DNA of 21,194 nucleotides from a virus (IMGVR_UViG_2537561991_000022), one strand, 5' to 3'. Positions 6,729-21,194 are shown, counted from the first letter of the stretch. Notes: a model not told the origin generated them from the letters alone. Numbers and translations are program-made.

Positions 6729-7010
6729 TCACCGTTCCTTAAAGACGCCGTTTAACATGCCGATCGCCAGGCTTAAATGAGTCGGTGTGAATCCCATCAG
6801 CGTTACCGTTTCGCGGTGCTTCTTCAGTACGCTACGGCAAATGTCATCGACGTTTTTATCCGGAAACTGCTGTCTGGCTTTTTTGATTTCAGAATTAGCC
6901 TGACGGGCAATGCTGCGAAGGGCGTTTTCTTGCTGAGGTGTCACTGAACAAGCCCCATGTCGGCAAGCATAAGCAAACAGAATATGAAGCCCGCTGCCAG
7001 AAAAATGCAT
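6729..7010 (-). CDS. Small hypothetical phage protein (lambda orf61-region homolog); possible internal GTG start at 6944
   Basis: 93-aa ORF whose C-terminal ~70 residues (TPQQENALRSIARQANSEIKKARQQFPDKNVDDICRSVLKKHRETVTLMGFTPTHLSLAIGMLNGVFKER) resemble the lambda early-left small ORF; true start unclear. Confidence 0.5.
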   Translation of the reverse strand: MHFSGSGLHILFAYACRHGACSVTPQQENALRSIARQANSEIKKARQQFPDKNVDDICRSVLKKHRETVTLMGFTPTHLSLAIGMLNGVFKER

Positions 7011-9346: not shown

Positions 9347-9479
9347 TTTTTGGGACTCCTGGCTGATTAAGTATGTCGATAAGGCGTTTCCATCCGTCAC
9401 GTAATTTACGGGTGATTCGTTCAAGTAAAGATTCGGAAGGGCAGCCAGCAACAGGCCACCCTGCAATGGCATATTGCAT
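9315..9479 (-). CDS. cIII: Lambda CIII (FtsH/HflB inhibitor, stabilises CII)
   Basis: Hand-translated 54-aa [57 protein letters not shown] (below the 60-aa cut-off of the ORF track); matches lambda CIII. Confidence 0.85.
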   Translation of the reverse strand: MQYAIAGWPVAGCPSESLLERITRKLRDGWKRLIDILNQPGVPKNGSNNYGYPD

Positions 9480-9551
9480 GGTGTGCTCCTTATTTATACA
9501 TAACGAAAAACGCCTCGAGTGAAGCGTAATTGGTATGCGGTAACGCCGCGC

Positions 9552-17265: not shown

Positions 17266-17927
17266 ATATCTACGAAAGAATTGATGGCAGCAAATACCGA
17301 AATATTTGGGTAGCTGGCGACCTGCACGGATGCTACACGAACCTGATGAACAAACTGGATACGATTGGATTCGACACCAAAAAAGACCTGCTCATCTCGG
17401 TTGGCGATTTGGTTGATCGCGGTACAGAGAACGTCGAATGTCTGGAATTAATCACATTCCCCTGGTTCAGAGCTGTGCGTGGAAACCATGAGCAAATGAT
17501 GATTGATGGCTTATCAGAGCGTGGAAACGTTAATCACTGGCTGCTTAATGGCGGTGGCTGGTTCTTTAATCTCGATTACGACAAAGAGACTCTGGCTAAA
17601 GTTCTTGCCCATAAAGCAGAAGAACTTCCGTTAATCATCGAACTGGTGAGCAAAGATAAAAAATATGTCATTTGCCACGCCGATTATCCTTGTGATAAAT
17701 ACGAGTTTGGAAAGCCAGTTGATCATCAGCAGGTAATCTGGAACCGCGAACGAATCAGCAACTCACAAGACGGGATCGTGAAAGAAATCAAAGGCGCGGA
17801 CACGTTCATCTTTGGTCATACGCCAGCAGTGAAACCACTCAAATTTGCCAACCAGATGTATATCGATACTGGCGCAGTGTTCTGCGGAAACCTCACATTG
17901 ATTCAGGTACAGGGAGAAGGCGCATGA
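17262..17927 (+). CDS. ninI: NinI serine/threonine protein phosphatase (lambda-PPase, Orf221)
   Basis: 221-aa translation with metallophosphatase motifs GDLHG, GDLVDRG, GNHE; matches lambda Orf221. Start overlaps the ninG stop, so no ninH lies between them. Confidence 0.9.
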
Positions 17928-18013
17928 GACTCGAAAGCGTAGCTAAATTTCATTCGCCAAAAAGCCCGATGATGAGCGACTCACTACTGGCCACAGTTTA
18001 TTGGTTTTCGTAA
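17924..18013 (+). pseudogene. Q: Truncated remnant of lambda Q antiterminator (~24 matching codons, then foreign sequence)
   Basis: Frame [20 protein letters not shown]... matches the lambda Q N-terminus, then runs into a stop at 18011-18013; downstream DNA is AT-rich and non-lambda. Confidence 0.7.
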
Positions 18014-18043: not shown

Positions 18044-19102
18044 TTAATCTTTTATAGTGCGAAATAAATGGAGCTGGCATTCATTTCGCACTTTATGTTT
18101 TTGTTTGGACTTATTGTTATTTTGTATTGAATTCAATTCAGTTAAAAAAAGAAAGGTGATTGCTCCATTTATAAATGAATAGTCATCCCCTGTCTTGAAT
18201 TCTGATGTTACTTTATTAAATGCTAGTGTGAAGGCTACAGGTGCATACCCAATTGTTGCGCCAACTTGATATTCATCAACAGTTTTGTTTAGCGATACTG
18301 TTGTTTGTTTCGTCTGTATTGTTTTTCCTTCGAGAGTATAGTTGCGATTGACATCTCGTCTTTCCATACCTGCAAAAATCTTGTATTTGAATCCGCTTGT
18401 ATCGGACATATGCATTAAACCACGGGGAGCCAGCAGACCAAAGCCATTATCCGAATTGAAGGTTTTATCATTACCAATGGCAATGGTTGCGCCATATGCT
18501 ACATATTGAAATAAGTTTCCAGTAACAGCAGAAACTTCAGGGTATAATCCAACATTAGCACCTAAAATATCCATACTTGGTGTCATGGATAGCATCCCTT
18601 TTACAGTATAACCGTAGCGATTCTCTATTTGATCATCCCATGCATGATATTTTTCTGCCCCAATAATCTCATGAGCTTTATTTTGTACTTTCTGACCGCC
18701 TGCGTCGGGGCCAACAACACCTATGTCAGTACCTAATCGATAGCGAATCCAGTCATTCGCAAGGGAGCTCCATTCAATACCAGTGTGAGTGTATGCACTA
18801 AAAGCTCTGTCCCCAGTTACAGCTGTGTTGTGTCTTTTATTACTGCCTGATGGAGAGTAAATATCTTGCGCAATATGGAGAGATAATTGGCTCGAGTCTG
18901 AGATATCGTGGCTATATCCCAGAAATAAGCCTTGTGAGTAATCATCTCTGTTTTCATGTTTATTGCCATAAATATCATTAAGTATTGGTTGAAACTTCCC
19001 TGCATCATCATTTGCTAATGATAATGCAAGGCTGTTCGCGATAGCTGAACACGTGGTAAATGACAGAGCAATAAAGACGCCAGCGATGACACTTTTTTTC
19101 AT
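18044..19102 (-). CDS. lpxR: LpxR-like outer-membrane lipid A 3'-O-deacylase (beta-barrel) with a 33-aa C-terminal extension
   Basis: Signal peptide MKKSVIAGVFIALSFTTCSAIA; mature-numbered N9, D10, S34 and H122 coincide with the catalytic residues I remember for Salmonella LpxR; the homologous part ends ...GAITFLF at residue 319; good SD (AAGGAAG). Confidence 0.7.
   Translation of the reverse strand: MKKSVIAGVFIALSFTTCSAIANSLALSLANDDAGKFQPILNDIYGNKHENRDDYSQGLFLGYSHDISDSSQLSLHIAQDIYSPSGSNKRHNTAVTGDRAFSAYTHTGIEWSSLANDWIRYRLGTDIGVVGPDAGGQKVQNKAHEIIGAEKYHAWDDQIENRYGYTVKGMLSMTPSMDILGANVGLYPEVSAVTGNLFQYVAYGATIAIGNDKTFNSDNGFGLLAPRGLMHMSDTSGFKYKIFAGMERRDVNRNYTLEGKTIQTKQTTVSLNKTVDEYQVGATIGYAPVAFTLAFNKVTSEFKTGDDYSFINGAITFLFLTELNSIQNNNKSKQKHKVRNECQLHLFRTIKD
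18057..18108 (+). terminator. Strong hairpin with downstream T-rich tract (plus-strand intrinsic terminator candidate)
   Basis: Perfect 9-bp stem gtgcgaaat/atttcgcac (18057-18065 / 18083-18091) with inner aatg/catt pairing, then tttatgtttttgtttgg. Lies inside the 3' extension of the LpxR-like ORF. Confidence 0.5.
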
Positions 19103-19577
19103 ATGTTATTGTCTTCCTTTTTTTTGAATGGTGCGCGTATTTTACATACATGAGTTTGTAATACAAGGTGCGTAATCAATATGATGTTTTATAATTGCGT
19201 GAGACAATTGATTTATTTGTTTTTTATTGCGGTTTTTATTATCTTTTAATGTAACGGTGTTTTTATTAAGTGTGTTTGCGTGGTGTTTTATGTTTTTTAT
19301 AATTTTTATTTTATTAAATTTAAATGCATTAGTAATGGCTATTCTATATAGCAATATAAGAACTGTTACAAAAAAAGGGGGGGCAATTACAGGTAGTTAT
19401 GGATGATGAGTGAAACAGATATTGGAGAACCGGGGAATGAATGATGTCTGAGTCTTATATATCAGAACTCCTTCGCTGTCGCTGGGGGCTCCTGTGCTTA
19501 TGTCGTTTCCCCGATTCGGTTTTGAACGATTACCGAATGTTGAAGAATTATGCCAAAATATAGAAAGGATTTACTGC

Positions 19578-20267
19578 ATGAATACCCAATATTTACAGTA
19601 TGTTCGTGAGCAACTTATGGCAGCTACTGCTGACTTGAACGGAGCAACGAAAGGCCAGCTCGAAGCCTGGCAGGAGCATGCACAATTTGATACTGGTACA
19701 TACAAACGAAAGAAGCCGCGCATTCTGGATGTGGTAACTGGCAAGATGATTACGCTGGATAATACGCCGACTTCCGGTAAGCAGTCGTACGCAAAAGGTT
19801 CATCCATTGCTTTGGTCAGCCCGGTTGAATTCTCAACCTCTTCATGGCGCCGCGCGGTTTTGTCTCTCGATGAACATCAGAAAGCATGGTTGCTTTGGTG
19901 TTACAGCGAAAGCGTTCGATGGGGGCATCAGGTCACCATAACGCAATGGGCATGGAGCGAGTTTAAAGATTTGTTAAGTAACAGAAAAATTGCAGGTAAG
20001 ACACTGGATCGCCTGAAGACGTTAATCTGGCTGGCTGCACAGGATGTGAAGAGCGAACTTGCAGGGCGTGAGGCCTATGAATACCAGACACTGGCATCAT
20101 TGGTGGGAGTGACAACAAAAAACTGGTCCGAGACATTTACTGAACGCTGGGTTGCAATGAAGCACATTTTTCTACAGCTTGATAGTGATGCTTTATTGCT
20201 TGTGACGAGAACACGTTCAAAACAAAAGGCAGCATTTTTACAGCAAAATATTGCAAAACTGGATTAA
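19578..20267 (+). CDS. Putative Q-family late-gene antiterminator (long phage-82/QuuQ-type), tentative; the ORF also opens upstream at 19494
   Basis: 229-aa frame from MNTQYLQYVREQL... with AAAGGA SD; sits after the nin region and is followed by a promoter-like element and short terminator as expected for Q-pR'-tR'. Family assignment is from gene context and weak recall only. Confidence 0.4.
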   Translation: MNTQYLQYVREQLMAATADLNGATKGQLEAWQEHAQFDTGTYKRKKPRILDVVTGKMITLDNTPTSGKQSYAKGSSIALVSPVEFSTSSWRRAVLSLDEHQKAWLLWCYSESVRWGHQVTITQWAWSEFKDLLSNRKIAGKTLDRLKTLIWLAAQDVKSELAGREAYEYQTLASLVGVTTKNWSETFTERWVAMKHIFLQLDSDALLLVTRTRSKQKAAFLQQNIAKLD

Positions 20268-20280
20268 AAGCCATATACTT
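20251..20280 (+). promoter_or_regulatory. Candidate sigma-70 promoter at the 3' end of the Q-like gene (pR'-like)
   Basis: -35 TTGCAA (20251-20256), 18-bp spacer, -10 TATACT (20275-20280); predicted start about 35 nt upstream of the terminator. Confidence 0.3.
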
Positions 20281-20312
20281 CATGCAAATTTGGTATGTTG
20301 TAAAAAATGTAT

Positions 20313-20340
20313 AAACCCGCTGCCGAGTGGGTTTTTTTTA
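20313..20340 (+). terminator. Intrinsic terminator (tR'-like) downstream of the Q-like gene
   Basis: Stem aaaccc/gggttt (20313-20318 / 20329-20334), 10-nt loop, followed by a T-run to 20339. Confidence 0.5.
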
Positions 20341-20436
20341 TGCCCTGAGTTGTACTTGTACGGTAAACATGCTGGCTGCTATGTAATAGAGTTTTTTTAG
20401 CCTGTAACCTCTTGACGGCATTGAATTGCTTTTGTT

Positions 20437-20955
20437 ATGAGTTGTAAGCCAATGTTATCATCTTGTATTGGGGTGGTTATGAAGGATGGTGCGCTGCTCA
20501 GGAGTTCTTCACTTTTTATTGCCTACATGGGATGCCTTGGATGGGGGAGTGCTTATTTCTATGGATGGGGTACTTCTTTTTACTACGGCTTCCCATGGTG
20601 GATTGTAGGTGCAGGTGTTGATGATGTTGCCAGAAGTTTATTTTTTGCAGTTATCGTCATTGCTATATTTCTTATCGGTTGGGGTATTGGTGTTGTATTC
20701 TTTTTCGCAGTGAAAAGAAAACATTCTATGCAAGAGCTAAATGTATTTCGCCTTTATTTTGCTGTGGAATTATTGTTTGTGCCGGCAATTATTGAGTTTT
20801 CTATATTGAGACAGAAGATTCAGGTACCTCTTTTGCTACTGTCAGCAGCGATTGCGCTGGCGGTTACAATTTCGATAAGATCTTATGGGCGATTTTTATC
20901 GGTATCATGCTTCTATGATAAGCCATTTATAAAAAACATTTTTTTGAGATTGTGA
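20437..20955 (+). CDS. Hypothetical polytopic membrane protein (Gly/aromatic-rich TM segments); likely start at 20479
   Basis: ORF with about four hydrophobic segments (e.g. WWIVGAGV, LFFAVIVIAIFLIGWGIGVVFFFAV, LLLLSAAIALAVTISI); AT-rich; stop TGA overlaps the next gene's ATG (TGATG). Confidence 0.5.
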   Translation: MSCKPMLSSCIGVVMKDGALLRSSSLFIAYMGCLGWGSAYFYGWGTSFYYGFPWWIVGAGVDDVARSLFFAVIVIAIFLIGWGIGVVFFFAVKRKHSMQELNVFRLYFAVELLFVPAIIEFSILRQKIQVPLLLLSAAIALAVTISIRSYGRFLSVSCFYDKPFIKNIFLRL

Positions 20956-21194
20956 TGATTGCTTTTGTGGCATATTTTTGGCTTTTTTCATTTCTGACAG
21001 GATATTACAAACCACAGTTTAAGAAAGAATATGAAATGATTAATTATAATGATGGTTGGTATTATGTTCTTGCTCGTTATGATAATTGTCTGGTTTTGTC
21101 TACTTCTTTCAATGCAGGTAGTAAAAGGTTTGTCATTTATCAATCAGCACAAGATAAGAATCTTCAGGTTGATATTGTAAGGACCAGAATTTAA
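20952..21194 (+). CDS. Hypothetical small membrane-anchored protein (one N-terminal TM plus ~55-aa soluble domain)
   Basis: 80-aa ORF MMIAFVAYFWLFSFLTGYY..., coupled to the upstream gene; stop codon is the last three bases of the window. Confidence 0.45.
   Translation: MMIAFVAYFWLFSFLTGYYKPQFKKEYEMINYNDGWYYVLARYDNCLVLSTSFNAGSKRFVIYQSAQDKNLQVDIVRTRI

Follow-up and report, generated by a model that had tools for sequence, protein, structure and literature searches.

The region from the Q gene at 19578 to the end of the terminator at 20339 is read here as the late-gene switch of a phage 434-like lambdoid prophage, made up of a Q82-family antiterminator gene, the late promoter pR' overlapping its 3' end, a sigma70-dependent pause element and the intrinsic terminator tR'. 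The probability of this reading is put at about 0.93, and the steps of the switch are predicted by homology with phage 82. The window, by which is meant the whole stretch of 21,194 nucleotides that was analysed, begins in host DNA and ends with the first late gene. The features used in the argument are the following.

1-1330: host DNA, ybhC, followed by integrase and excisionase genes
18044-19102, minus strand: lpxR, lipid A deacylase LpxR-family outer-membrane protein (Pfam PF09982, E = 1.5e-39)
19441-19563, plus strand: ylcG-like small ORF, 40 aa (ORF list; 'YlcG-like' in phage 434, 'YlcG family protein' in RefSeq)
19566-19569, plus strand: ribosome-binding site AGGA, within GAAAGGA at 19563-19569 (sequence; annotated in OL657226)
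19578-20267, plus strand: Q gene, Q82 family, 229 aa plus stop in a 690-nt CDS (Pfam, PHROG, phage 82 alignment)
20251-20256, plus strand: pR' -35 hexamer TTGCAA (sequence, consensus scan; also at the end of phage 82 Q, X92588)
20274-20279, plus strand: pR' -10 hexamer TATACT (sequence, consensus scan)
20286, plus strand: putative transcription start, +1 (A), set as the seventh base after the -10 hexamer
20291-20299, plus strand (+6 to +14): sigma70-dependent pause element, extended -10-like TGgTATGTT (conservation; matches the published description of 82 pR')
20310-20311, plus strand: predicted promoter-proximal pause site at +25/+26 (T, A), placed by register from 82 pR'
20313-20339, plus strand (+28 to +54): intrinsic terminator tR' (terminator scan, RNA fold; annotated terminator in OL657226)
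20452-21194, plus strand: first late gene after tR', membrane protein (247 aa in phage 434; PHROG 1521)

The cassette is already known: its gene carries the annotation Q82-like in phage 434, hundreds of E. coli genomes in RefSeq label it antitermination protein Q, and the Q82 late-switch mechanism is the textbook one. Its one slightly unusual aspect is how short the leader is, and this short form recurs as a variant. This study adds the exact coordinates of pR', the pause element and tR' in a 434-type cassette. It also adds the block boundaries, with Q, promoter and pause element travelling together to +15 and leader and terminator exchangeable. In addition, it draws attention to natural Q82-family leaders whose terminator nearly abuts the pause site, in the one Q family that has no solved structure.

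The assignment of the protein is carried by profile searches and by alignment with phage 82. A Pfam profile search of the Q ORF returned PF06323 as the sole Pfam match (E = 1.7e-91, 306.3 bits, with a cut-off of 25 bits), covering profile positions 1-216 of 220, and the ORF also matched PHROG 304, 'anti-termination protein Q-like' (E = 3e-108). The 229-aa protein aligns with phage 82 Q (X92588) at 89% amino acid identity, at equal length and with zero gaps. According to PMC9388147, PF06323 corresponds to the Q82 family, and the three Q families share no detectable sequence similarity with each other; neither lambda-type Q (PF03589) nor phage 21-type Q (PF06530) matched the Q ORF at E <= 0.01. 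An NCBIfam search with Q and its neighbours gave zero matches. Judged by these family matches, the product of 19578-20267 is a Q82-family transcription antiterminator. The sequence-only reading had proposed a Q-type antiterminator at this position and had suggested a homology search; the search bears the proposal out (PF06323 at 306 bits, PHROG 304, 89% to 82 Q), and the protein falls in a Q family and not in an unrelated one. A PDB sequence search with Q gave chance matches only (E of at least 0.12), with no structural homologue by sequence, and no experimental structure of a Q82-family protein was found in that search or in the literature as of 2022. The AlphaFold2 model built from the single Q sequence had a mean pLDDT of 41.9 and was unusable.

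The plus-strand ORF at 19494-20267 extends to 257 aa with a GTG start and gives the 229-aa form from the ATG at 19578. The gene is taken as 19578-20267 because, in the numbering of the 257-aa ORF, the PF06323 profile begins at residue 32 and PHROG 304 at residue 29, because AGGA stands 8 nt before ATG 19578, because the extension overlaps, in a different frame, the ylcG-like ORF directly upstream of Q, and because the annotations of phage 82, phage 434 and RefSeq agree on the 690-nt CDS with the 229-aa start. The GTG start was ruled out on the profile starts, the overlap and these three annotations. An ORF of 229 to 257 aa had been reported here previously; the ORF is present, and of its two forms only the 229-aa one is the gene.

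Q closes the early rightward (nin/rus) region, and the genes upstream of it are NinG, a phosphatase, a lambda-Q remnant, lpxR and ylcG. The ORF had been described as following the nin region; it does not do so directly, the remnant, lpxR and ylcG lying in between. The remnant is a 29-codon ORF at 17924-18013 (plus strand) that overlaps the stop codon of the phosphatase gene and diverges after its start; it is annotated as an N-terminal lambda-type Q fragment in phage 434 and as an incomplete antitermination protein in RefSeq. It marks the joint at which a lambda-type Q was replaced by a block of lpxR, ylcG and the Q82-type Q. The lpxR gene, inserted between the nin genes and Q, is read from the other strand, so early rightward transcription must traverse lpxR antisense to reach Q.

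The pR' promoter consists of TTGCAA, which falls in the last five codons of Q, and TATACT, separated by a spacer of 17 nt. Both hexamers had been noted before with a spacer of 18 nt, and only the spacer length needs correction. The hexamers alone are at chance level, as a promoter consensus scan of 19000-21194 (2.2 kb) found 6 promoter-like sites and 6.7 were expected in shuffled sequence; the scan was discarded as promoter evidence because it is uninformative. What raises pR' above chance is its conservation across Q82-family loci. Seven close loci (phages and E. coli genomes) were gathered together with 44 Q82-family loci at 59-73% protein identity, the latter from Kluyvera, Citrobacter, Leclercia, Enterobacter, Klebsiella, Raoultella and other genera. 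The 51 loci compared are the window, six of the close loci and these 44; they were lined up from the stop codon of Q, and column identity was scored over the 48 distinct sequences among them.

All 51 loci have the arrangement TTGCAN-17-TAnnnT-11-TGnTAT or a near variant. The -35 hexamer is TTGCAN in 50 of 51 loci, the spacer is 17 nt in every one, and the -10 hexamer is TATATT in 36 of 51 (46 with other TAnnnT forms, by our own count). The gap from the -10 to the pause element is 11 nt, and TGnTAT occurs at the same distance in 44 of the 51. Column identity averages 0.97 over the -35 hexamer and 0.94 over the -10 hexamer; within TGnTAT it is 0.96-0.98 at five positions and 0.88 at the first T. 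The corresponding means are 0.75 for the spacer, 0.77 for the Q coding sequence just upstream and, in an ungapped register that makes the value unreliable, 0.55 beyond +18. The conservation peaks coincide exactly with the -35, -10 and TGnTAT elements, and the pR' hexamers align base for base with those of phage 82 pR'. By this alignment, the promoter overlapping the 3' end of Q is the homologue of the phage 82 late promoter. The Q / pR' / tR' arrangement suggested by the sequence-only reading holds, since promoter and terminator are placed in that way and the promoter is homologous to the studied 82 pR'. The heading of that reading gave Q "its own promoter," which is misleading, as pR' is a late promoter acted on by Q; its text had said so correctly.

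A direct repeat, TGCAAA-N2-TGG, was observed on the plus strand at 20252-20262 and 20283-20293, its copies 31 bp apart. One copy is at the pR' -35 and the other is just upstream of the pause element, and the 82-type relatives have TGCAAAACTGG and TGTAAATCTGA at the two sites. The repeat could be a -35-like element or part of a Q-binding site.

The start register adopted here is supported because it reproduces the published features of 82 pR' on the 82-type relatives. The 82 pR' promoter has a -10-like element with an extended -10, a GCC discriminator at +15 to +17 and pauses at +25/+26, with U at +25 (PMC5001585). In the same register the 82-type relatives have TGaTATTTT at +6 to +14, GCC at +15 to +17 and T at +25. 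The pause element is the defining cis element of Q-regulated late promoters, and it is a feature which the earlier account of this DNA did not include. After the pause element the window reads GTA at +15 to +17 (20300-20302), A5 at +18 to +22, TG, and T at +25 (20310). This GTA is a single case among the 51 loci and takes the place of the GCC discriminator, which is a feature of the 82 pR' pause and is no criterion for the Q82 protein family. GCC mutations in 82 pR' reduced the pause half-life 2- to 5-fold (PMC5001585). Thus, with GTA instead of GCC, the position, strength and half-life of the pause are uncertain in the window, and the pause may be weaker or shifted.

Among loci L003-L053, the relatives with medium-length leaders have a possible leader hairpin, absent from the window, at about +11 to +38 of the pR' transcript. 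Its 5' arm is formed by the end of the -10-like pause element and GCC, and its 3' arm by +30 to +38, with arms of UGCCA/UGGCA, UUUUGCC/GGCAAAG, UGCUGCC/GGCGGCA and UGCCAA/UUGGCA in the different classes. The mean duplex energy was -7.7 kcal/mol for a locus's own arms, -6.6 kcal/mol for arms swapped between classes and -4.5 kcal/mol for shuffled arms; the effect was clear in the GCC classes and not in the CGTCGCC class. RNAalifold found no consensus structure in the medium-length leaders of the relatives. These figures are suggestive only of a conserved leader hairpin in this set.

The tR' hairpin occupies 20313-20334 (+28 to +49) and has 9 pairs, formed by AAACCCGCT and AGTGGGTTT around a GCCG loop. 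A run of T8 at 20332-20339 gives the last three positions of the stem and the tail. The 60-nt RNA containing this hairpin folds with -15.8 kcal/mol (z = -3.3 against shuffles). The hairpin begins 34 nt after the -10 hexamer, in agreement with the hairpin and T-run placed earlier at about 35 nt past the promoter. A hairpin with a T-rich tail is found downstream of the pause element in 48 of the 51 loci. In the window only about 3 nt separate the predicted +25 pause from the start of the hairpin, and the terminated RNA would be about 52-54 nt long. In the 82-type relatives, by contrast, the hairpin begins at about +50 and the terminated RNA is estimated at about 80-85 nt.

The short leader belongs to a recurrent minority class (6 of 51 loci, several genera). 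The five other short-leader loci have homologous AACCCGCC...GCGGGTT terminators starting at +28/29, and are from Superficieibacter (L014), Kluyvera cryocrescens (L015), Scandinavium (L029), Enterobacteriaceae MGYG-HGUT-00110 (L032) and Citrobacter (L037). Because these loci have the same arrangement, the short leader is no deletion peculiar to this sequence. Two E. coli relatives (L004 and L007) have a similar terminator about 18 nt further downstream. It is improbable that the 434-type short leader, with its hairpin close behind the predicted pause and no GCC discriminator, makes a functionally distinct, minimal Q82 cassette. If this were true, Q would have to protect fully by about 28 nt after leaving the pause, a constraint on whether Q82 acts as a closed nozzle. 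The RNA of about 53 nt, made constitutively, might then be abundant as a small RNA of prophages, in parallel to StxS, given how many E. coli genomes carry this stretch (628 of 5426, including EHEC serotypes).

Rfam gave nothing at gathering score in the cassette region. A match to STnc240 (20274-20343) scored 28 bits, below the threshold of 55, and was taken as chance given its terminator and A/T runs. The sub-threshold matches to Phe leader, Leu leader and tsr31 were also taken as chance.

The surroundings of the cassette indicate an integrated prophage. Between 19400 and 20450 the window matches phage 434 (OL657226) with 100% identity; in that record the gene, CPT_434_67, is annotated 'transcriptional activator/anti-terminator, Q82-like'; the RefSeq entry for the same 690-nt CDS is WP_001097238.1. 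The CDS limits in phage 434 are those found in the window and the same terminator is marked, whereas pR' and the pause element are unannotated in OL657226. Across 82% of the window, from position 1331 on, the identity to phage 434 is 99.6%. Since the first 1330 bases are host ybhC and the phage 434 match runs from 1331, the prophage is at the lambda attachment site, and by these matches the window is a 434-like lambdoid prophage by ybhC and not the phage 434 virion genome. It also differs from phage 434 in the gene after tR', where A6 at 20931-20936 stands in place of A7. This 1-nt deletion splits the membrane-protein gene into ORFs 20437-20955 and 20952-21194, in different frames. Holin, lysozyme and Rz genes lie downstream of the cassette in phage 434 and in the O157:H7 copy, and here would be beyond the window end. 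Of 5426 complete E. coli genomes, 628 contain the 19400-20450 stretch at >=99% identity, and its carriers include O157, O26, O103, O111, O121 and O145 strains.

The homology shows two mosaic breakpoints. DNA homology to the 82-type relatives ends at 20300 (+15), so Q, promoter and pause element were inherited as one block. Homology to phage 2B8 (93%) begins at about 20335, the end of the terminator, with the Q and promoter part of the query unmatched. The breakpoints at 20300 and about 20335 thus delimit three blocks, namely Q with pR' and the pause element, leader with terminator, and the late genes. The segment of leader plus terminator looks like a separate exchangeable block.

The closest studied counterpart of the switch is that of phage 82. 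Both have the -35 TTGCAA in the last Q codons, a 17-nt spacer, the same start register, an extended -10-like pause element at +6 to +14, an A/T-rich stretch and T at +25. They differ in the -10 (TATACT in the window, TATATT in 82), in the pause element (TGgTATGTT and TGaTATTTT) and at +15 to +17 (GTA and GCC), where the homology ends. Lambda and phage 21 have the same order of Q gene, constitutive late promoter, sigma70-dependent pause, intrinsic terminator and late genes. Their Q proteins, however, belong to the families PF03589 and PF06530, which are unrelated to PF06323 (PMC9388147), and structures exist for both, whereas the Q82 family is without one by the PDB and literature searches described above. 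In lambda, the pause is at +16/17 (PMC5001585) and not at +25, and tR' is at +193 (PMC4914094). Short RNAs from pR' that are terminated at tR' have been reported in lysogens of lambda (6S RNA), 21, phi80, 82, P22 and Stx phages (PMC7547250). For example, StxS also comes from a constitutive pR' that is terminated just downstream, giving a short RNA in lysogens (PMC7547250). StxS differs in being cut to 74 nt from a terminated transcript of 258 nt and in binding Hfq, whereas the RNA of the window is predicted at about 53 nt.

The proposed mechanism is based on work on phage 82 (PMC4914094, PMC5001585) and on other Q families, and promoter activity, start, pause and Q-dependent read-through in the window are all predicted by homology. 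RNA polymerase would start at about 20286 from a constitutive pR'. Sigma70 region 2 would then re-bind the -10-like element, and the complex would scrunch and pause near +25. Without Q, the polymerase would terminate at tR' and release an RNA of about 53 nt. With Q present on its DNA site in the promoter region, and with NusA helping, Q would load onto the paused complex, engage the beta flap tip, displace sigma region 4 from the beta flap and travel with the polymerase. NusA would stimulate the engagement of Q when the nascent RNA is short. The modified polymerase would ignore tR' and later terminators and read through into the late genes for the membrane protein, DUF3927/TciB, holin, lysozyme and Rz. 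Terminator read-through, binding to the Q-binding element (QBE), beta-flap contact and NusA stimulation have been reported for phage 82 Q (PMC4914094); for the Q of the window we only infer these properties from 89% identity. Published constructs place the Q-binding element of 82 pR' within -31 to +30 (PMC4914094). A full-text literature search for the string GATATTTTGCC (82 pR' sequence and QBE position) returned unrelated papers only.

Other readings of the same DNA were weighed against the late switch. It is very improbable that 20313-20339 is simply the terminator of the early rightward Q transcript, with TTGCAA-17-TATACT as a chance look-alike. The consensus scan, with 6 sites where shuffled sequence gives 6.7, would allow this, and the location of the -35 in coding sequence could explain part of its conservation. 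However, the -10, the start region and TGnTAT are outside the ORF and yet are more conserved in the 51 loci than the 3' end of the ORF. The block is also homologous to 82 pR', a promoter for which experiments have established the start, the +25 pause and the dependence on Q, and the homology breaks after +15 and not at the stop codon. A second function for the same bases is unlikely, though less so, namely that TTGCAATATTTTGC (20256 to 20243, minus strand) is the CII box of an antisense, paQ-like promoter sharing the palindromic TTGCAA. If true, the same DNA would couple the lysogeny decision to Q and pR', which would add to the late-switch explanation. In OL657226 a CII site is marked here together with a paQ -35 signal, and the box is perfect. 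The strict form TTGC-N6-TTGC occurs five times in the window, at 20243-20256, 2697, 6963, 7847 and 13143, all on the minus strand, with a chance estimate of about 0.65, and two copies, other than those at 6963 and 7847, match pI and pRE in sequence and position. The antisense promoter, though, would be without an acceptable -10 at the pRE/pI distance, with CCTTTT here where those promoters have AAGTAT and TGTACT. One half-site is the palindromic pR' -35 and the other is the Gln-Gln codons of Q, the full box is kept in about 8 of 51 relatives (by our own reading of the flanks), and a search for a supporting experiment found none.

The alternative to be taken most seriously, although we lean against it, is that the cassette is a relic, intact in sequence within a defective prophage, that exerts no lytic control in this strain and yields at most the short RNA. 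The window starts in host ybhC and is thus an integrated copy, the first gene after tR' is frameshifted relative to phage 434, and O157:H7 PV15-279 has an identical cassette in a prophage with truncated structural pseudogenes. Yet Q, promoter, pause element and terminator are 100% identical to those of phage 434, which forms plaques, and the window ends at 21194, before the lysis and structural genes. The relic reading moreover bears on present use and not on the identity of the element, which is that of a late-gene switch under either outcome. Elsewhere in the prophage, a Lambda_thermo cIII thermoregulator element was found at 9434-9492 (minus strand) with 88.5 bits, the only Rfam match of the window above gathering score.
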